From IMG/VR virus record IMGVR_UViG_3300003375_000020, positions 19,380 to 83,379 of that record: a stretch of DNA of 64,000 bases; one strand, 5' to 3'. The stretch comes from a virus (lineage: Duplodnaviria; Caudoviricetes). The position numbers and the translations under genes were made by a program. Below are positions 15,197 to 23,497 of the stretch, piece by piece; positions within the stretch are counted from its first letter, which is position 1; each line of letters opens with the position of its first letter. Below the pieces are notes generated by a model that did no database searches, was not told the origin of the DNA, and worked only from the letters and a program-made list of their open reading frames with translations.

Positions 15197-15715
15197 GTGA
15201 AAACATTATACGCATTCGACTTGGATGATACGCTAATAACTTCTAAATCATTAGTGATTGTTAGAAATAATACTACGGGAAAGACTAAAAAATTGAATGC
15301 TGCGCAATATGCTACGTACGAACCAAAATTGGGAGATAAAGTAGATTTCAGCCAATTCGACAATTTGAATGATCCAGAGATCATAAAAAAGAATTTTGAT
15401 CTTTTCTCACAGATATTAAAAAAGACAGTTACATTAAAGAACTCGAAAACTATTATCTTAACAGCAAGGACACCTAAAATAAAGAGCGATGTGTACTCTT
15501 TACTTAAATCTAAAGGTTTACCATCTTTAAAAATACACGCTGTAGAGAGCTCAGATCCCATGGCTAAAGTAAACATTATCCAGCAATATATAGACTCAGG
15601 ATATGATCGGGTGCGTTTTTATGACGATTCCCCAAAGAACATACAGGCCGTGAATGCGATGAAGAAAGAAAATCCCAGTGTAAATCTTACCTCAAAATTG
15701 ATATCATCTCACTAA
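15197..15715 (+). CDS. HAD-superfamily phosphatase (GTG start)
   Basis: FDLDDTL motif I, LTAR motif II, FYDDS..N motif IV. Confidence 0.8.
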   Translation: MKTLYAFDLDDTLITSKSLVIVRNNTTGKTKKLNAAQYATYEPKLGDKVDFSQFDNLNDPEIIKKNFDLFSQILKKTVTLKNSKTIILTARTPKIKSDVYSLLKSKGLPSLKIHAVESSDPMAKVNIIQQYIDSGYDRVRFYDDSPKNIQAVNAMKKENPSVNLTSKLISSH

Positions 15716-15972: not shown

Positions 15973-16054
15973 GCTGACCCCAGCGTCAGAGAGTCTGTCT
16001 GCTAAGACTACGTATTTCGAAAGGTCTTTTATTATATATTTATTATAACATAAC

Positions 16055-16552
16055 GGGGATGCCAGGCATTTGATCTAGATGCGAATGGTAGTATCACATG
16101 CAAGACGAGAGAGCGTCAAAAAACTCTTGAAAAATAAACGCAAACAAAACTGCAAACTTCGACTTCGCAAACAACGTTATCAACATGGCATTTGCTAATG
16201 CTCCTGTTGCTTTAGCAGCTTAGTCTACGGGTTGGTAACTGACCTAGGAACATAATAGTTACAAATCGTGTGAAGACGAGGCGGACTTTGGCCCGTAATT
16301 TTAGAGCTTACACAGTAGTATGCCAATGCTACAAGTTCTTGGACTTAAACCAAGTGGTGGATTCAAAACTCGTATACCAATACGACCCGTACTAATCAGT
16401 TATTGAGCGAAGCATCGGAACAGGAACGATAAGATCACACGTAGCCTGATGATAGCAGATTAACTCTTGTCACTGTGTACAGTATGACTAAGCATGTAAG
16501 TACGGTATTATGATTACTTTTAGAGACGTCGGTTCGAATCCGACCATCTCCA
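16055..16552 (+). ncRNA. ssrA: tmRNA (one-piece, about 498 nt); tag ANKTANFDFANNVINMAFANAPVALAA at 16140-16223
   Basis: Acceptor GGGGATG/CATCTCC with G3.U wobble, A discriminator, T-arm GTCGG-TTCGAAT-CCGAC, AATAAAC-GCA resume context, tag ends ALAA-stop. Confidence 0.95.
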
Positions 16553-16598
16553 CTGTCACTTTTTTGTACCTTGAGCATATTTATAATAAACTATAGAT

Positions 16599-17204
16599 AT
16601 GCCAAGAGTACAACATAAATATCATTTTATATATAAAACTACTAATTTAAAAAATGGTAAATTTTATATAGGAATGCATTCAACTTCTAATTTAGATGAT
16701 GGATATTTGGGTTCTGGAGATAAATTAAGAAGATCTATAAGAAAATACGGAAAAGAAAATTTTAAATTAGAAATTTTAGAGTATTTTGAAAATAGAGAGT
16801 TATTATCTAAAAGAGAAAAAGAATTAATTAATGAAGATGTATTGAAAGATCCAATGTGCATGAATTTAAAAGTTGGTGGAGAAGGTGGATGGCATGTATA
16901 TGCTAATAAAGCATTTAAAGAAAAATTAAAAGATATAAAATATAAAGAAAATTTTTCTAGAATATGTATAGAAAGAAATAAAAAATGTTTTGAACTAGGT
17001 ATTATTAAATCCTGGAATAAAACATATGATTGGACTGATAAGTATCATACACCAGAGACCATTAAAAAAATGAAAAATTCTAAAATAGGTCATGGTAAAG
17101 GAGAATTGAATTCTCAGTTTGGAACTTTTTGGATAACTGATGGAAAGTATAATAAAAAAACAAAATATGAAATTCCTGAAGGGTGGTACAAAGGTCGCGT
17201 ATAA
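16599..17204 (+). mobile_element. Seg-like GIY-YIG homing endonuclease
   Basis: FIYKTTNL.NGKFYIG.H...DDGYLGSG; HTPETIKKM NUMOD3; NSQFGT.WITDG tail. Confidence 0.88.
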
Positions 17205-17212
17205 AAATTCTT

Positions 17213-17280
17213 TATTGATTATCAACTAGTTATGGTAATTGGAAACCAACTAGTTATGCTTAACTGGTTGATAACCAATA
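17213..17280. promoter_or_regulatory. Cluster of three IHF-consensus-like boxes (locus A)
   Basis: TATCAACTAGTTA, AACCAACTAGTTA, reverse TATCAACCAGTTA versus WATCAANNNNTTR. Confidence 0.65.
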
Positions 17281-17298
17281 CTGAGACTTTAAAAATAA

Positions 17299-17335
17299 AT
17301 TTTTTTATATCAAAAATTAGTAGTAAGTTTACTAT
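17299..17335 (+). promoter_or_regulatory. Putative promoter of the leader/tRNA-array transcript
   Basis: TTTTTTTATATCAA...TAGTAAGTTTAC matches elements at 48664-48700 and 56183-56216. Confidence 0.6.
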
Positions 17336-17383
17336 ATCACAATTACAAAAAGCGTTTTATTATAAATGCACATAATTATTAGC

Positions 17384-17527
17384 ATGAAACAACATTTATT
17401 ACATACAGCGACATGGCAAATAGAACGTAGACATACGTTATCCCTAGGCTATTGTTTTATGTCGATTAATGATGTGCAAGGAAAACCTAGTAATTCACCG
17501 GGGCTTAATGATACAAATTGGGGATGA
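17384..17527 (+). CDS. Putative leader peptide (47 aa) MKQHLLHTATWQIERRHTLSLGYCFMSINDVQGKPSNSPGLNDTNWG
   Basis: ORF between promoter and terminator; all 20 amino acids by codon 35; an in-frame ATG also at 17366. Confidence 0.75.
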   Translation: MKQHLLHTATWQIERRHTLSLGYCFMSINDVQGKPSNSPGLNDTNWG

Positions 17528-17561
17528 AAAATCTCTAAATAAAAATCAAAAATTAAGCCTC
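17500..17561 (+). promoter_or_regulatory. Putative antiterminator helix
   Basis: GGGGCTTAAT (17500-17509) pairs with ATTAAGCCTC (17552-17561), 10 bp with one G.U, overlapping the terminator 5' arm. Confidence 0.7.
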
Positions 17562-17592
17562 AACTCAAAAAAAGTTGAGGTTTTTTATTTTT
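17555..17592 (+). terminator. Intrinsic terminator directly before the first tRNA
   Basis: Stem CCTCAACT/AGTTGAGG, 7-nt loop, TTTTTTATTTTT. Confidence 0.9.
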
Positions 17593-17664
17593 GGTAACAT
17601 AGCTGAGATGGATTAGCGTAAGTCTGAAAAACTTGAGGACTCAGCTCGGAACTGAGAAGTACCA
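17593..17664 (+). tRNA. tRNA-Phe(GAA), degenerate acceptor stem
   Basis: AAGT-CTGAAAA-ACTT anticodon arm; T-loop CTCGGAA; 3 acceptor mismatches. Confidence 0.7.
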
Positions 17665-17680
17665 CATAAATAAAGCATAA

Positions 17681-17821
17681 ATGACAAATAAACAAATTGA
17701 AGAACAAATAGCAATTATTAAAAAAGTTACAGCTGAAGCTTGTAAAAGCAAAAAAACAGCTAGAAAGTTTTTAACAGATGCAGGAATAATAAAAACAAAT
17801 ATGAAGAAAAATAAAAGATGA
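17681..17821 (+). CDS. Small basic hypothetical protein (46 aa)
   Basis: MTNKQIEEQIAIIKKVTAEACKSKKTARKFLTDAGIIK... Confidence 0.5.
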   Translation: MTNKQIEEQIAIIKKVTAEACKSKKTARKFLTDAGIIKTNMKKNKR

Positions 17822-17849
17822 AGATCTCTCTGAAGCAGGAGGGACATAT

Positions 17850-17923
17850 TCCCTCTTAGCTCAATTGGTAGATGTACGTGGCTTTTAACCATGGGGTTGT
17901 GAGTTCGAATCTCACAGGGGGCA
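17850..17923 (+). tRNA. tRNA-Lys(TTT)
   Basis: CGTGG-CTTTTAA-CCATG; GTGAG-TTCGAAT-CTCAC. Confidence 0.85.
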
Positions 17924-17944
17924 CATAAAAATAAAATAAATAGT

Positions 17945-18169
17945 ATGTCAATTTACGCAACAAATTACATAATTGATGAAGAAACACGTGAACCAAAACT
18001 TGTTAAACATTTAAATCAAACAAGAATTGATAGAGGTACCGCAAAAAGACCACCTGGAAAGTGGAATAAAAATGGTGCTAATCAAAAAGAAAGAAAACGT
18101 TGGAGTAAAGGAGATTCAAAAAAAGAATTTAAATTAGACAAAATGAAAAAAGACTTTGAAGGATTGTAA
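17945..18169 (+). CDS. Basic hypothetical protein
   Basis: ORF inside the tRNA array. Confidence 0.5.
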   Translation: MSIYATNYIIDEETREPKLVKHLNQTRIDRGTAKRPPGKWNKNGANQKERKRWSKGDSKKEFKLDKMKKDFEGL

Positions 18170-18188
18170 GGACTAAAACCTTACAACA

Positions 18189-18500
18189 ATGACAAACACA
18201 AGAGAATATCGTACAACAACAAACAGAAGTGTTTATAACAAACTGTATAAAGAATATAATGCTCACTGTTCTTACTGCAAATGGCATGGACCATCATCTG
18301 AAAATGATAGATATAAATGTTATTATATAAGAGAATGGAATAATAAAAAGAAAGCTAAATATCCTAACTGGAAATTAGTATCAAAAAATCAAAAACAGTG
18401 GATGAAAAAACCATTGATTTTTAAATCAAGTATTAATCCATACAGTCCTTGGACTTATTGGATTGATATTGAATGGCCTAGTAAAATTAGACCAAAATAG
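18189..18500 (+). CDS. Hypothetical protein (CSYC; NWKLVSKN.KQW)
   Basis: ORF inside the tRNA array. Confidence 0.55.
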   Translation: MTNTREYRTTTNRSVYNKLYKEYNAHCSYCKWHGPSSENDRYKCYYIREWNNKKKAKYPNWKLVSKNQKQWMKKPLIFKSSINPYSPWTYWIDIEWPSKIRPK

Positions 18501-18506
18501 AAAAAC

Positions 18507-18577
18507 GTCGAGTTGGTGCAATGGTAGCATACCTGATTCCAAACCAGTTGATGAGGGTTCGAATCCTACGGTGGGTG
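18507..18577 (+). tRNA. tRNA-Trp(CCA), degenerate (acceptor strands do not pair)
   Basis: D-arm GTGC-AATGGTA-GCAT, anticodon loop TTCCAAA, GGTTCGAATCC. Confidence 0.55.
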
Positions 18578-18583
18578 CAAAAT

Positions 18584-18655
18584 AGACTTGTAGTTTAACG
18601 GATAGAATGATTGGCTACGGACCAATTGGTGGGAGTTCGATTCTCTCCAAGTCTA
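18584..18655 (+). tRNA. tRNA-Arg(ACG)
   Basis: AGACTTG/CAAGTCT; ATTGG-CTACGGA-CCAAT. Confidence 0.92.
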
Positions 18656-18681
18656 CAATTAAAAAATTAAAAATTAAAGTT

Positions 18682-19224
18682 ATGAGAAAGAAAATTATTT
18701 TTATTGATGTTGATGGGCCATTGGCTTGGGCAACATGGTACGATGGTAAAGTGAAGATAAACGAAAATACTATGAATGAGTTTACAATACCTTACCCATT
18801 AGTAAAAGAGGATTGTGAAGCATTGCAAGAAATTTGTGACAAGACTAATGCAGAATTAGTATTATCATCAGATTGGAAGTTACACTTTACTCTTAGACAA
18901 ATGAGTGATACATTTATTGAGTTTGGTATTCATGCTCCATTGATTGATATCACAACACATATGAGTAGTAGAAAGCTGGGAATTTGGAATAAGATGAGTA
19001 ATCCATCCTTAGAGTTTGAAAGAGCACATCAGATTGTAAAATGGGTTAAAGATAATAAGATTAGTAACTGGATTGCAATTGATGATATGAAATTAAGTGC
19101 AGAGTTCAAATGGATGAAACATCGTATCCCAATGTGGAGGCATGTACAAGTTGATGGAGATTTTGGACGTGGTGGAAGATTGAGAGATAAGGTAGATGAA
19201 TGTATTAATAAACTAAACCGATAA
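18682..19224 (+). CDS. HAD-domain protein (RNA-repair-associated HAD type)
   Basis: FIDVDG, VLSSDW, WIAIDD; true start 18682 (AAAGTTATG), since the ORF-track start lies inside tRNA-Arg. Confidence 0.8.
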   Translation: MRKKIIFIDVDGPLAWATWYDGKVKINENTMNEFTIPYPLVKEDCEALQEICDKTNAELVLSSDWKLHFTLRQMSDTFIEFGIHAPLIDITTHMSSRKLGIWNKMSNPSLEFERAHQIVKWVKDNKISNWIAIDDMKLSAEFKWMKHRIPMWRHVQVDGDFGRGGRLRDKVDECINKLNR

Positions 19225-19297
19225 GGCGAGTTGTCCGAGTGGATAAAGGCACAGCACTGCAAACGCTGTTACGTGAGTTCAATTCTCACCTTAACCT
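19225..19297 (+). tRNA. tRNA-Cys(GCA), degenerate acceptor stem
   Basis: CAGC-A-CTGCAAA-C-GCTG; GTGAG-TTCAATT-CTCAC; U discriminator. Confidence 0.65.
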
Positions 19298-19326
19298 CTT
19301 TTGGATCTTTGACATATGGAATTTAT

Positions 19327-19402
19327 CGAGATGTGGACCAATTGGCTAGGTCGCTTCATTTGGGATGAAGACATCGTGCAAGTTCGACCCTTGTCATCTC
19401 GA
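19327..19402 (+). tRNA. tRNA-Pro(TGG)
   Basis: CGAGATG/CATCTCG; CTTCA-TTTGGGA-TGAAG. Confidence 0.92.
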
Positions 19403-19493
19403 CTAAAGCTAATTTAATTCTTTTATCCCTGCTTGGAGTAAAAGTATGAAATAAACATAGTGCTTTATAACATAAAAGATAGAATTAGTATTT

Positions 19494-19568
19494 GGGGAGT
19501 CATGTACCAAGGCTTGGCGATGCTGCTTTGCAAGCAGCGTGTGGACGGTTCGATACCGTTACTCTCCA
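19494..19568 (+). tRNA. tRNA-Ala(TGC)
   Basis: GGGGAGT/ACTCTCC with G3.U; GCTGC-TTTGCAA-GCAGC. Confidence 0.92.
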
Positions 19569-19649
19569 CTATAGGGTGTAATTATACCTACAACAAAGGG
19601 AAGTTTCAGAGATGGTTCCTAATCGCACTCTTTCAAATGCGATGGATAT

Positions 19650-19725
19650 GGGCGCTTCGCTTAGCTGGTTTTAAAGCGTCACTCTTACAAAGTGAAGATC
19701 ATCCGTTCGACTCGGATAGTGCCTA
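19650..19725 (+). tRNA. tRNA-Val(TAC)
   Basis: GGGCGCT/AGTGCCT; TCACT-CTTACAA-AGTGA. Confidence 0.92.
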
Positions 19726-19780
19726 CAAAGAGGACAAAATGTATAGTAGCCTCAAGGATGATATCTCCTACTATACTCAT

Positions 19781-19852
19781 GCAGCAGTAGCTCAAAGGAA
19801 GAGCGTCACATTGCCAATGTGAAGGTTGAGATTTCGAAATTCTTTTGCTGCT
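19781..19852 (+). tRNA. tRNA-Gly(GCC)
   Basis: GCAGCAG/TTGCTGC; TCACA-TTGCCAA-TGTGA. Confidence 0.92.
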
Positions 19853-19857
19853 CATAT

Positions 19858-19929
19858 TGCTTATTAGTATAACGGCTAGTACATTTGGTTTTGGTCCAAA
19901 TAGTTGGGGTTCGAATCCCTGATAAGCAT
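19858..19929 (+). tRNA. tRNA-Gln(TTG)
   Basis: TGCTTAT/ATAAGCA; TTTGG-TTTTGGT-CCAAA. Confidence 0.92.
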
Positions 19930-19934
19930 CATAA

Positions 19935-20016
19935 GGAGAGTCCTAAAGGAGTAGTTAGCTGTCTTGAAAACAGTGAAGAGGTAACACTTGTGAGGGTTCG
20001 AGTCCGTCACTCTCCG
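19935..20016 (+). tRNA. tRNA-Ser(TGA), atypical D-arm
   Basis: GGAGAGT/ACTCTCC; GCTGT-CTTGAAA-ACAGT; long variable arm. Confidence 0.8.
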
Positions 20017-20120
20017 CTAAAACATTCCGAAACCCAGGCACAAATTGTTGGTGGAGTATGATACGTAAAGTATCCCGAGACAGCAGGGGAAATAACGTTA
20101 AGAGGAATGTTTTTTAATAT

Positions 20121-20192
20121 GGGTCTTGAAGCTTTAAGGTGAAGTGCATGTTTGTGGCACATGAGAACTCGGTTCGATACCGTGCTAGACCC
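20121..20192 (+). tRNA. tRNA-His(GTG) with encoded G-1
   Basis: GGGTCT/AGACCC; CATGT-TTGTGGC-ACATG. Confidence 0.85.
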
Positions 20193-20275
20193 CGGCACCA
20201 TGATAAAACTTGGTACGTAACAAGTGGATAGAAGATTATGTCTAGGCTAGATAGGTTTTGCTTTTATCAAATTTT

Positions 20276-20360
20276 GGAAGTTTGCTCGAAAGGTAAGAGG
20301 CCAGTTTGCTAAACTGAAGCCTGGGTAAAACCAGAAGTGGCTCGGTACCACTAACTTCCG
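20276..20360 (+). tRNA. tRNA-Ser(GCT)
   Basis: GGAAGTT/AACTTCC; CAGT-TTGCTAA-ACTG; variable arm CTGG-GTAAAA-CCAG. Confidence 0.88.
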
Positions 20361-20432
20361 CTACTTTACACAAAGTGTATGGTGCTGGCAAGACTTAAAA
20401 ATGGTCTCGAAGACAATGCCTAAAGTTGTCCT

Positions 20433-20457
20433 CTCTACCTACGGGGTAGAGTTTTTT
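20433..20457 (+). terminator. Intrinsic terminator inside the tRNA array
   Basis: CTCTACC/GGTAGAG stem + T6 abutting tRNA-Ile. Confidence 0.7.
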
Positions 20458-20529
20458 GGAGATATAGTAGAATGGTAAGCACACATGACTGATACTCATG
20501 GAATCCAAGTTCGAGCCTTGGTATCTCCA
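20458..20529 (+). tRNA. tRNA-Ile(GAT)
   Basis: GGAGATA/TATCTCC; CATGA-CTGATAC-TCATG. Confidence 0.92.
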
Positions 20530-20539
20530 CACAATATAA

Positions 20540-20627
20540 GGACGGGTTGCTTTAGAGGCCGAAAAGTCTAGACTGTTAATCTAGTGTCGAAAGACCATCG
20601 TGAGTTCGAATCTCACCTCGTCCTCCA
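20540..20627 (+). tRNA. tRNA-Asn(GTT) with long variable arm and encoded CCA
   Basis: GGACGGG/CTCGTCC; CTAGA-CTGTTAA-TCTAG; GTC-GAAA-GAC variable arm. Confidence 0.85.
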
Positions 20628-20636
20628 CATTTATAA

Positions 20637-20718
20637 GCCAACGTCGCATAGTGGCAATTGCAGCAGACTGTAAATTTGTTCTCTTCGGAGTTCGAAGGTT
20701 CGAGTCCTTCCGGTGGCA
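20637..20718 (+). tRNA. tRNA-Tyr(GTA)
   Basis: GCCAACG/CGGTGGC; CTGTAAA loop; CTC-TTCG-GAG variable arm. Confidence 0.92.
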
Positions 20719-20730
20719 CATTAAAAATAT

Positions 20731-20768
20731 AGTTTTTATATACAGCTTAATGTAGTATATTTACTATA
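20731..20768 (+). promoter_or_regulatory. Putative internal promoter upstream of tRNA-Glu
   Basis: TTTTTATATAC...GTAGTATATTTAC resembles the other promoter elements. Confidence 0.5.
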
Positions 20769-20779
20769 TATTAAACAAT

Positions 20780-20851
20780 GCTCTTGTCATCTAATGGTTA
20801 GGATGTCAAATTTTCGATTTGAAAATGAGGGTTCGATTCCCTTCAAGAGTA
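20780..20851 (+). tRNA. tRNA-Glu(TTC)
   Basis: GCTCTTG/CAAGAGT; TCAAA-TTTTCGA-TTTGA. Confidence 0.92.
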
Positions 20852-20877
20852 CTTTTAAATCACTATACAATAAATAA

Positions 20878-20954
20878 CGAAAGTGGGGCTGCTAGGCTGT
20901 GGCCGCTGGATTGTCACTCCAGATATCAGGCGAGTTCGAATCTCGTACTTTCGG
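20878..20954 (+). tRNA. tRNA-Asp(GTC)
   Basis: CGAAAGT/ACTTTCG; CTGGA-TTGTCAC-TCCAG; G73. Confidence 0.88.
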
Positions 20955-21029
20955 CAGAATGTTACCTATTGGAATAACCAGCGCATGACGTGGTTGGCGT
21001 CCGACTTGGAGAGTAGGTAATTTTTCATT

Positions 21030-21101
21030 GATCCTTAGCTCATCAGGTTAGAGCAAGTGACTCATAATCATTAGGTGACCAGTTCGAGTCTGGTAGGATC
21101 A
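21030..21101 (+). tRNA. tRNA(CAT), Met or Ile2
   Basis: GATCCT/AGGATC; AGTGA-CTCATAA-TCATT. Confidence 0.88.
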
Positions 21102-21111
21102 ACTTTAATAT

Positions 21112-21181
21112 TGCGAGGAAGTGAATAGGTATCACGCTAGTCTCATAAGCTAGAGAACCGGATCAATACCGGCGATCGCAA
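21112..21181 (+). tRNA. tRNA(CAT), Met-type, partly degenerate
   Basis: TGCGA/TCGCA; CTAGT-CTCATAA-GCTAG; T-loop ATCAATA. Confidence 0.7.
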
Positions 21182-21404
21182 CTAAAATTTTGCTAGAAAG
21201 TAAATGAGTGATGTAGTTATAGAAGTGTAAAGACTATCGCATTACAGTAGTATCAGCTACGTTCATTTATTAGTATAGGTAGTTAGCTTGGGCGGTTGGC
21301 TGAAACGAAGTAATTCGTAGTCATATTAATATAAGGATAGGTTAAATTCCTATACGGTTCTTTCTAACTTACTACACTCTGATAAGTGTACAAAATTTTA
21401 AAAT

Positions 21405-21476
21405 CGCATTATGGTGAAAAGGCTATCACAGAGTCCTCATAAGGCTTTATTCCAATTTCGAGTATTGGTAATGCGA
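21405..21476 (+). tRNA. tRNA(CAT), Met-type
   Basis: CGCATTA/TAATGCG; GAGTC-CTCATAA-GGCTT. Confidence 0.85.
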
Positions 21477-21481
21477 CATTT

Positions 21482-21556
21482 GGTTGATTAGTTCAGCTGG
21501 TTTAAGAACACTTGCCTTGTAAGCATGAGACTTCGGTTCGAATCCGAAATTGACCT
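21482..21556 (+). tRNA. tRNA-Thr(TGT)
   Basis: GGTTGAT/ATTGACC; CTTGTAA loop. Confidence 0.9.
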
Positions 21557-21649
21557 CCCTAGTTATACCAGAGAAGTTAGGTAGTATAAACAGCCCTCCT
21601 GTCCACAGGTCACCGCGAGGAGGTTGGTTGGTGACGAGGCTTCTCAAAT

Positions 21650-21721
21650 GCAGATATCGTATAATGGCTATTACTCCATCCTTCCAAGTTGGAGATGTAG
21701 GTTCGATTCCTATTATCTGCT
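21650..21721 (+). tRNA. tRNA-Gly(TCC)
   Basis: GCAGATA/TATCTGC; CTTCCAA loop. Confidence 0.9.
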
Positions 21722-21941
21722 CACGAGCTGGTTATAAATAATCAACAGCTAGTTCCATCCTGAATGATGAGAAGCGGAGGTGATGCCCGTATGGATTCCT
21801 AGAGTGTAGTAGGGGAACACTTAAAGCTCATCAAGCTTGTACCTAATAAAGTCAAATTGATTATTCCTAACTTATTCGGTTTGGAACCGGGTAAGGACAG
21901 CTAAGACACCTGTGAGTTGGATAAATAAAGGTGTCACTTTT

Positions 21942-22017
21942 GGTCCTGTAGCATAACGGATTAATGCAACAATCTTCTAAATTGTTTTTTATAAGAGTTC
22001 GAATCTCTTCAGGACCT
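21942..22017 (+). tRNA. tRNA-Arg(TCT)
   Basis: GGTCCTG/CAGGACC; ACAAT-CTTCTAA-ATTGT. Confidence 0.92.
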
Positions 22018-22033
22018 CTAAAAATGAAAGAAT

Positions 22034-22237
22034 ATGATTTGGTTAATTGAACTGATTTGGTTATTAAGTATTGTATATGTCATTCATAGAATGATAGGAA
22101 GTAATAATAAAAAATCTTTAGATGGTGTTATAGGAAACACGCCAGGATTTGATGCAATAATATTTGTATGGGGAGCACCATTTTTTGCATTAGTTGATTT
22201 AGGTGCAAGATGGATTTCACACATGAAGCATAAATAA
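22034..22237 (+). CDS. Small membrane protein
   Basis: Two hydrophobic segments. Confidence 0.55.
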   Translation: MIWLIELIWLLSIVYVIHRMIGSNNKKSLDGVIGNTPGFDAIIFVWGAPFFALVDLGARWISHMKHK

Positions 22238-22241
22238 AAAT

Positions 22242-22270
22242 TGTTGAGTGGCGAAATTGGCAGACGCACC
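22242..22270 (+). pseudogene. Orphan 5' fragment of a Leu-type tRNA (D-arm only)
   Basis: TGGCGAAATTGGCAGACGCACC D-arm, then truncated just before the endonuclease promoter. Confidence 0.7.
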
Positions 22271-22305
22271 TTTTTGTTAATTTATAATATTTATCATAAA
22301 GAGGT

Positions 22306-22971
22306 ATGAGTGCTATAATTTATGAAACGGTAAATTTATTTAACAAAAAGAATAACATACTTCCTTATAGGTATATTGGAAGTGATCAACACAACAAACC
22401 TAGCTATTTAGGAAGCAGTAAAGAACTATGTGTAGATATAAAAAAACTAGGAGTAGATCAATTTGAAAAAAGAACTCTTTGTGAATTTAAAGAGGAGATT
22501 TCTAATATACTGCTAAGAAAAATAGAATCTCAAATTCAAACCTATTTAGGAGTAGCAAAAGATGAAACTTATTACAACAGGACAAATAGCTCTCTTAGAG
22601 GTTATGAGGAAACTGATGAACAGAGAGAAGCTAGAAAAGTTAACTTGTTAAAGAATAGAAAAATTTGGTGGGAATCTCTAACTGAAGAACAAAGGGAAGA
22701 AGAAAAAAAGAAAAGTGGAAAGTTTTTAGCCGCTTATAATAGATCAACTAAAGGAAAAACTTATGAGGAGATTTTTGGAGCAGAAAAAGCAAAGCTTAAA
22801 AAAGAGAAACACTCAGGAGGCAACAACAGTAATGCTAAAAAAGTATTACATAAGCCTTCAAATAAAATTTTTAATTCTGCTTTGGAGGCAATGAACTTTT
22901 TTAGCATAAAAAGATATGGAAGTTTGTATACAAGAATTAAAAAAGGTGAATTTGAATTTTTAAAAAGCTAA
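22306..22971 (+). mobile_element. Seg-like GIY-YIG homing endonuclease
   Basis: IIYETVNL...YRYIGSD....YLGS; ETYYN; GKTYEEIFG. Confidence 0.82.
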
Positions 22972-22975
22972 ACAC

Positions 22976-23130
22976 TGTTTCCTGGCGAAACGCTGAAAAG
23001 CTTGGCAGACGCGCTCCTCTTGTCTCGAGGGTGTGGAGCAACTAATAAAGATTGGATAATGGGTTGACCACAAAGCGCGCAATGTCCTCTTCCTAAAGTC
23101 CACGTCATGGTTCGAATCCATGGGAAACAG
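22976..23130 (+). ncRNA. Oversized (155 nt) tRNA-like RNA with GTC in the anticodon position
   Basis: TGTTTCC/GGAAACA acceptor, CATGG-TTCGAAT-CCATG T-arm, Leu-type D-arm with hairpin insert, about 70-nt variable region. Confidence 0.7.
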
Positions 23131-23209
23131 CAATAGTACGTTCGTAAGTAGCCGGTTTAAAACTATTCAAATAAGGAAACACGGCCTCCCTAAAAATGGG
23201 GGACATCAA

Positions 23210-23282
23210 GCACCTGTAGCCCAACGGGAGAGGCAATAGACTTAGGATCTATTCAGTGTCGGTTCGAATCCGACTAGGTGTA
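23210..23282 (+). tRNA. tRNA-Leu(TAG) with short variable loop
   Basis: GCACCTG/TAGGTGT; ATAGA-CTTAGGA-TCTAT. Confidence 0.88.
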
Positions 23283-23390
23283 CAAAAGAAACAGAAGTGT
23301 TTAATGAATGTAGTTTTCTCATTATGTTTCTTCCGGCCGTAGTTAGACTTCAAGATAAACTCATTCAAAGCTGGGTCGCTCCCAGTGCAT

Positions 23391-23465
23391 GCCTGTGTGA
23401 CGTAAATGGCATACCGTATCAGACTTAAAATCTGAGTCATGTGGGTTCGAATCCCATCACTGGTA
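23391..23465 (+). tRNA. tRNA-Leu(TAA) with short variable loop
   Basis: GCCTGTG/CACTGGT; TCAGA-CTTAAAA-TCTGA. Confidence 0.88.
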
Positions 23466-23497
23466 CTTTTAATATTTATTAAAAAAAGGAGGTTTAC

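Follow-up and report, generated by a model that had tools for sequence, protein, structure and literature searches.

The DNA considered here, called the window below, is a stretch of 64,000 nucleotides (nt) from a virus of the Caudoviricetes, positions 19,380 to 83,379 of IMG/VR record IMGVR_UViG_3300003375_000020. It lies in an 83-kilobase (kb) contig of 31% G+C, in which the long open reading frames (ORFs) are all on the + strand. At window positions 17299 to 17592, directly ahead of an array of phage tRNA genes, is a compact element that consists of a candidate promoter, a short ORF and an intrinsic terminator. The original prediction regarded this element as a leader-peptide attenuator that gates the array. 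The leader, its relatives in other phages and the evidence for and against such a role are described here; coordinates are collected in Table 1.

The leader ORF has 47 codons followed by TGA, as had been claimed. A word-based homologue search with its peptide gives three homologues. When viral and metagenome contigs are scanned with DNA patterns and back-translated sequence and a hidden Markov model (HMM) search is added, the number rises to about 30 clusters at 50% identity; the HMM search of 1.84 billion representatives produced 33 matches, of which about 30 are true family members, all of 41-51 amino acids. DNA was obtained for 20 distinct loci, the sources being IMG/VR, JGI, ENA and Logan contigs. 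Is the arrangement of ORF and terminator retained in related arrays, a check proposed with the original prediction? In about 20 lineages it is, and the order is always a promoter motif, an ORF of 41-51 codons, an A/T-rich spacer of 17-38 nt, a GC hairpin with a T tract, and tRNA-Phe(GAA). The tRNA gene starts within 1-30 nt of the terminator in the relatives (150 nt in one lineage, L077) and is followed by tRNAs for Lys, Trp, Arg, Cys and Pro, then by the rest.

Insertions and deletions in the ORF are all multiples of three, the start and stop positions are preserved among the relatives, and codons vary synonymously in columns where Glu, Arg, Leu, Gly, Cys or Pro is conserved. By these comparisons, the leader ORF is under coding constraint. 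The peptide matches no Pfam or PHROG family. AlphaFold2, run with 34 sequences, predicts no secondary structure, with a predicted local distance difference test (pLDDT) value of 56.7 and a predicted template modelling (pTM) score of 0.12; the idea of a folded small protein was rejected on these low scores together with the lack of a Pfam or PHROG match. The family appears in none of several other places searched: blastn of 16000-19000 against GenBank phages matched only the SegB-like gene, with the leader in no record, and a scan of GTDB species genomes with the peptide alignment found no relative. The leader peptide is also absent from loci L001-L046, found via a 205-amino-acid HAD protein, which have a second, shorter leader family or no nearby array. 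The protein-database cluster for the ORF (P0001, 52 amino acids) spans 17384-17542, reads TGA as Trp and is five codons longer; this version seems to result from gene calling with a different genetic code, the contig's other ORFs being normal with code 11. A small hairpin inside the ORF is a possible pause signal for RNA polymerase. Among 17 relatives 84.6% of its cells are paired, which is not clearly above shuffles (38 of 500 are as good), and RNAalifold finds no consensus structure.

Three strands make up the putative switch: A, near the end of the ORF, B, beyond the spacer, and C, which precedes the T tract. The predicted strong terminator was found, with an 11-bp stem formed by B and C and a T tract that ends 1 nt before the first tRNA-like gene. 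The hairpin has a folding energy of -12.8 kcal/mol, the 121-nt fold has z = -4.5 against shuffles, and an intrinsic terminator is present in all 24 loci examined. The 10-bp helix that had been described as mutually exclusive with the terminator is also real. Strand A pairs with B by nine Watson-Crick pairs and one G-U pair, overlapping the terminator 5' arm, and the RNAduplex energy of -14.6 kcal/mol is matched by 2 of 500 dinucleotide shuffles. In the window, A is the best duplex partner of this arm in the whole ORF and spacer. The spacer after the stop is 27 nt long and A/T-rich here, and B begins 24 nt past the stop (17552).

The evolution of the two strands is informative. The terminator stem has at least eight sequence versions among the lineages, and at every one of the 24 loci the best partner of its 5' arm is in ORF codons 37-44. 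Relative to the first base of the stop, strand A ends anywhere between 1 nt downstream and 21 nt upstream, at most loci 0-18 nt upstream, and the strand changes along with the stem, even at the cost of encoded residues. Pairing is stronger than the mean of 500 dinucleotide shuffles in nine of nine lineages; the number of shuffles that reach the observed pairing is three or fewer in seven of them, and 13 and 31 in the other two. With the ORFs and arms of 13 representatives, one per stem version, cognate pairs have a mean of -13.8 kcal/mol and non-cognate pairs -9.7 +/- 0.5 kcal/mol, and in a permutation test no derangement out of 7277 reaches the observed value.

In a MAFFT alignment that was not fitted to structure, the 13-pair helix is 74.8% paired, compared with 17-54% when the partner is slid by 1-3 columns. 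Compensatory changes on both sides are seen in 7 of the 13 pairs, with a covariation score that 0 of 500 shuffles reach, and so the covariation that the original prediction proposed to look for in the 10-bp helix is found. These counts come from a 10-row subset alignment that is in register; a 20-region MAFFT alignment misaligned strand A in about half of the rows and was not used. RNA truncated at B folds into A:B in 24 of 24 loci. To judge from the paired changes, the antiterminator A:B is maintained by selection. The resemblance between A and C might instead have come from the target-site duplication of a mobile terminator element, but this candidate was rejected, as it needs independent insertions of different sequences at the same site in at least eight lineages.

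The codon content of the leader is its second unusual property. All 20 amino acids appear by codon 35 with 26 distinct codons, and each isoacceptor pair listed originally is present, with codons for all 25 decoding classes by codon 36; all this agrees with what had been read from the window. The classes are defined by the tRNAs of the array; there is one for each of the 20 amino acids, and Leu, Ile, Ser, Arg and Gly each contribute a second box. The array of the window encodes exactly the 25 classes that the leader samples. How rare is such a roster? In the contig's ORFs, 0.11% of 35-residue windows contain all 20 amino acids, and about 1.5% of its 46-codon gene windows do. Taken alone, the leader's roster is uncommon but falls short of overwhelming, since the property was singled out post hoc.

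The relatives offer a broader basis for comparison. A complete set of 20 amino acids is found in 30 of 39 distinct peptides, and 19 are found in six more; when residues are permuted within columns, 16.1 +/- 2.6 peptides are complete, and none of 5000 permutations exceeds 25. A tree-aware simulation with site-specific frequencies, started from an ancestor that is complete, yields P <= 0.0007 at a simulated identity of <=0.51 (0.44 is observed), and P = 0.014 at a clearly too-conservative setting. All 25 classes are present in 15 of 19 leaders, which represent 12 of 16 groups below about 80% identity, and the rest hold 23-24; among 46-codon windows of the phage's genes the figure is 0.03%. When synonymous codons are redrawn according to phage usage with the peptide fixed, both boxes of the five split families are expected in 1.3 of 19 leaders and are observed in 15. 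Amino-acid and codon diversity is far above the controls in the window and in the relatives, as the original prediction anticipated.

Selection on individual codon classes can be followed at several positions. In 17 of 19 leaders exactly one codon is GGY; it occupies one or the other of two conserved Gly positions, and the remaining one has GGR. Of the phage's Arg codons 14% are CGN, yet this class is in 19 of 19 leaders, usually once, beside one AGR. Codons of the AGR, CUN, AUA, Ala and Val classes relocate between columns, and the class is kept when its usual position is lost. The order of the codons is also biased: in 15 of 19 leaders the last new class comes at codon 32-38, just 5' of A, compared with a mean of codon 43-46 when the order is random (median P 0.015), and the tail after A adds no new class in most lineages. 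Synonymous codons of the leaders are rarer than in 85-99.9% of gene windows; little weight is given to this, since usage is from this contig only and the effect comes partly from the coverage of minor boxes. On these statistics, codon-class coverage is under selection, down to synonymous sites.

A second family of leaders is found in relatives whose arrays start with tRNA-Pro. These leaders differ in sequence and have 31-35 codons, with the same A:B:C design and with A and B covarying, e.g. GATTCAG with CTGAATC in L018, and AGGTTCAG with CTGAACCT in L025. They are rich in Pro, Asn, Asp, Gly and Thr codons, which correspond to the tRNAs of the following block. In both families the leader seems to mirror the array behind it, the window being the case of a complete array. 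The original prediction presented universal codon sampling as undescribed, and no description of it was found in the full-text literature searched; the leader is not unique in kind, given these shorter, block-matched leaders.

Where would transcription of the leader begin? The promoter-like element first pointed out is not upheld as a sigma-70-type site, as the match at 17336-17363 (9/12) is no better than chance in a scan of the window. A better candidate is the element at 17355-17370, a variant of the TATATTTAT-type motif that almost every relative has 5-25 nt ahead of its leader start codon, with TTTG about 20 nt upstream of the motif in some. We infer that this element is the promoter.

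Conserved anatomy, co-evolution of A and B, selection on codon classes and sampling codons placed 5' of A together argue for a ribosome-mediated (trp-type) transcription attenuator of a complete phage tRNA array, one that senses slow decoding of any class; we give this a probability of about 0.7. The dedicated promoter would start transcription a few nt before the ORF, and the RNA would then be made in the order strand A, stop, A/T-rich spacer, strand B, strand C and U tract. If all codons are decoded fast, the ribosome would cross A and wait at the stop 15 nt on, B:C would form and transcription would end before the tRNAs. If a scarce aminoacyl-tRNA makes the ribosome stall anywhere from codon 2 to about codon 35, A would be left free to pair with the emerging B, the terminator could not form and the array would be transcribed. 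Its products would relieve the stall, which amounts to negative feedback.

The geometry is compatible with this scheme. A ribosome is assumed to cover about 12-15 nt on each side of its decoding centre. With this footprint, a stall at codons 2-35 should leave A free in the window, while a ribosome at the stop should cover the 3' part of A or sit in the 42-nt loop between A and B, blocking the helix and leaving B free for C. Translation of the ORF, the direction of the switch and its trigger, be it host tRNA cleavage, starvation or late codon demand, are what we infer from this arrangement. The context, with an adjoining tmRNA (transfer-messenger RNA) and genes of RNA-repair type, may point to a link to anticodon nucleases. 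It is also fairly probable that the leader is a universal decoding-speed sensor, where a single ORF presents 25 of 25 classes 5' of the antiterminator and a shortage of any aminoacyl-tRNA switches on the full tRNA set with feedback.

A number of observations weigh against an attenuator of this kind. Codon sampling does not require the core residues to keep their order as strictly as they do, those of multi-copy classes (Thr18, Leu19 and Leu21) included, which suggests an extra constraint on the peptide or the RNA. Four of 19 leaders lack one or two classes, and an internal (elongator) Met codon is missing in seven of 19. For classes seen only at codons 34-36, a stalled ribosome would sit partly over A. 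P values that assume independence are too small, as the lineages are related. In the window itself, the promoter is only a variant of the motif, one swap away from the copy in L054, and the first tRNA, by its sequence, is marginal and degenerate.

Other points concern the RNA and the host. For the full-length RNA, the structure of minimum free energy is the terminator, and read-through would therefore depend on co-transcriptional kinetics; this is usual for kinetically controlled attenuators. No anti-antiterminator segment ('region 1') that could pair with A was found upstream of it in the leader. Without translation of the leader, read-through would be constitutive, which is not so in trp. 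The host of the phage looks to be of the Bacteroidota type, to judge from intergenic motifs of the contig, which resemble TTTG ... TAnnTTTG, and from the scarcity of Shine-Dalgarno motifs, found before 4 of 79 genes, A-rich stretches preceding the start codons. To our knowledge, coupling of transcription and translation is not established in Bacteroidota.

Could the same features have another explanation? The anatomy of the switch and its covariation fit equally well with a more general translation-coupling attenuator, which would sense whether ribosomes follow the polymerase at all, and with it ribosome availability or a global arrest of translation, the roster being a by-product of a diverse conserved peptide. 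Much of the completeness does reside in the conserved core, as the column-frequency null already has 16 of 39 peptides complete. A by-product does not account for the synonymous coverage of split families (15 of 19 against 1.3 expected), the GGY/GGR swap, the relocation of AGR and AUA or the block-matched leaders of relatives, and we consider this explanation unlikely. Nascent-peptide arrest of the TnaC or SecM type, in which the core (His7, Trp11, Glu-Arg, Gly-Tyr-Cys-Phe, Lys-Pro) would stall the ribosome from inside its exit tunnel in response to a ligand or factor and set the choice between A:B and B:C, is improbable. It draws on a core order that is conserved with synonymous variation, implying selection on the peptide or on class identity, on the lack of a stable fold, and on a Lys-Pro pair four codons before A. 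However, a ribosome stalled at Lys-Pro would lie over part of A, a position that favours termination; most of the invariant residues belong to single-copy classes, which a codon roster would freeze too; and isoacceptor-level selection at synonymous sites is left unexplained.

Two further explanations dispense with a regulatory role for either the helix or the ORF, and both are very improbable. One is that the ORF is an ordinary gene for a small phage protein and has a terminator of its own, the tRNAs being made by leaky read-through or from other promoters and A:B having no role in regulation. This would agree with the conservation of the ORF as a peptide, with the 150 nt that contain a promoter-like stretch between terminator and tRNA-Phe in L077, and with the ORFs that interrupt the window's array, which may carry their own promoters. 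Against it stand the co-evolution of A:B through at least eight stem versions at the expense of encoded residues, the lack of room for a promoter between T tract and tRNA-Phe in most lineages, the codon-class statistics, and a peptide with no AlphaFold2 fold and no family match. An RNA-only or factor-dependent switch, T-box-like or with a protein-binding antiterminator, would explain the alternative helices A:B and B:C and make the ORF incidental; yet a search of 17299-17592 detects no Rfam family, T-box included, at a threshold as loose as E <= 1, indels in about 30 lineages leave the reading frame intact, and A is part of the ORF, its distance from the stop being fixed.

If the element is an attenuator that samples all codon classes, how does it compare with known systems? 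The trpL, hisL, pheL and leuL leaders of E. coli and Salmonella are leader-peptide transcription attenuators of amino-acid operons. They resemble the phage element in having a promoter, a short leader ORF, antiterminator and terminator helices that exclude each other, and an intrinsic terminator ahead of the genes; the position of the ribosome, decisive in these operons, would decide the outcome in the phage too; trp regions 2, 3 and 4 correspond to A, B and C, and in both cases the stop is close behind region 2. The phage element differs in having one codon per class instead of a run for a single amino acid, in its targets, which are tRNAs and not biosynthetic enzymes, in the lack of an evident region 1 or 1:2 helix, and in being phage-encoded, in a host type without Shine-Dalgarno sites. 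Several amino acids are also sensed by one leader in the ilvGMEDA operon (Ile, Val and Leu codons) and the thr operon (Thr and Ile), where a stall at any of them gives read-through; those leaders have clustered, repeated codons for two or three amino acids, whereas the phage leader has mostly single codons for 20 amino acids and 25 isoacceptor classes.

T-box riboswitches resemble the phage leader in coupling tRNA status to a choice between terminator and antiterminator in a 5' leader. A T-box, in contrast, binds one uncharged tRNA, has no ORF and controls synthetase or amino-acid genes, and the phage leader has no match to the T-box model (RF00230). A fairly general sensing of stalls on a short leader ORF is seen in the ermCL, cat, cmlA and ABC-F gene leaders, where a drug-stalled ribosome remodels the downstream RNA. 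There the stall is due to the drug and the nascent peptide and there is no codon roster, whereas tRNA supply is the proposed signal in the phage.

We know of little on the regulation of phage tRNA genes. The usual accounts of these tRNAs, compensation for codon usage and escape from host tRNA-cleaving defences, are silent on control, and a full-text literature search, largely without subscription journals, gave no account of tRNA genes, phage or bacterial, that are controlled by a leader peptide. The leader would bring to leader-peptide attenuation both a new target, tRNA genes, and universal sampling. If correct, it would be the first known case of attenuation at tRNA genes and also of an attenuator that responds to all amino acids together; tRNA supply would be sensed homeostatically by the translating ribosome, which would extend attenuation from amino-acid metabolism to the decoding machinery. 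The swapping of a single GGY codon and the pairing of one CGN with one AGR would offer a rare case where selection for isoacceptor identity is visible at synonymous sites. The element might also constitute a compact natural reporter, 210 nt long, of decoding speed for all codon classes.

Table 1. Features of the leader, the tRNA array and their surroundings; coordinates refer to the window unless a locus is named
Feature	Position	Strand	Remarks
Likely promoter element (-7/-10-like) of leader transcript	17355-17370	+	Variant of TATATTTAT-type motif
Leader ORF	17384-17527	+	47 codons + TGA; at least one codon for each of 25 decoding classes
Small in-ORF hairpin	17424-17439	+	5-bp stem; considered as possible RNA polymerase pause hairpin
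Strand A, putative antiterminator 5' strand	17500-17509	+	ORF codons 39-42; ends 15 nt before stop
Strand B	17552-17565	+	17552-17561 pairs with A; 17555-17565 is terminator 5' arm, pairs with C
Strand C and T tract	17573-17592	+	Terminator 3' arm 17573-17583; T tract to 17592
tRNA-Phe(GAA)-like first gene	17593-17664	+	Rfam RF00005, 28.9 bits (cutoff 29), E = 0.011
tRNA array, putatively regulated	17850-23466	+	22 tRNAs by ARAGORN; interrupted by small ORFs and HAD gene
Trp(CCA)-like tRNA	~18507-18580		Rfam near cutoff; missed by ARAGORN
Cys(GCA) tRNA	19225-19297		Rfam near cutoff; missed by ARAGORN
Third CAU tRNA	21112-21181		Rfam near cutoff; missed by ARAGORN
Second-family leaders	L012:3616-3790; L015:4919-5090; L018:2155-2330; L025:1572-1730
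PNK-like phosphatase gene	15197-15715		phrog_415
Phage tmRNA	16055-16555		Directly upstream of leader region; Rfam RF00023, 70.7 bits, full-length model
SegB-like GIY-YIG homing endonuclease gene	16599-17204		PF19835, phrog_314
Gene with HAD domain of 'Swiss Army Knife' RNA-repair proteins	18607-19224		Interrupts array; PF18143, E = 9e-20

The genes around the leader differ among the lineages. The SegB-like endonuclease gene, which has about 72% DNA identity to T4 segB over 270 nt, is inserted between tmRNA and leader in the window's own lineage; in the relative L065 the same leader occurs without the endonuclease gene, directly behind a tRNA-like 3' end and with a standard promoter motif. The tmRNA of another relative, L047, is located after the array instead. 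In the window a TATATTTAT motif (16035-16043) precedes the tmRNA, and the same motif is present before several other genes. Together, the tmRNA, the tRNAs and the RNA-repair-type genes suggest a translation-maintenance island aimed at tRNA damage. Related contigs are up to 321 kb long, and lake samples are among their sources, judging by the names of the records.

The array together with the Phe-like gene covers 20 of 20 amino acids, with second isoacceptors for Arg, Gly, Ser and Leu and with a CAU tRNA, possibly tRNA-Ile2. The first tRNA, said to follow the terminator directly, is a mixed case. In the window it is a marginal Phe(GAA)-like sequence that ARAGORN misses and that has three mismatches in its acceptor stem, and at the orthologous position in relatives ARAGORN calls a good tRNA-Phe(GAA). 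In the close relative L050/L052 the acceptor stem of tRNA-Phe is intact and the T loop is unusual.

Between tRNA-Phe and tRNA-Lys, relatives have a second mini-ORF of 5-11 codons that is rich in Lys and Arg (MKRK...KRKR). It is found in L048 (~503-566), L049 (~1618-1689), L054, L057, L059 and L061; the corresponding region of the window is 17801-17849, where the counterpart is the tail of ORF 17681-17821. The mini-ORF is followed by a hairpin that has no T tract and whose 5' arm repeats, and covaries with, the 5' acceptor strand of the next gene, tRNA-Lys. This hairpin may mimic the acceptor stem, or it may offer an alternative pairing with an effect on the processing of tRNA-Lys.

Inside the array, 6 nt before tRNA-Ile, is a second terminator-like hairpin with a T tract (20433-20451). 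It is preceded by a 14-codon mini-ORF (20379-20423) with Asn, Glu and Asp codons, and the tRNAs that follow are those for Ile, Asn, Tyr, Glu, Asp and Met. The segment 20379-20457 may represent an internal attenuator that acts at the level of a block of tRNAs.

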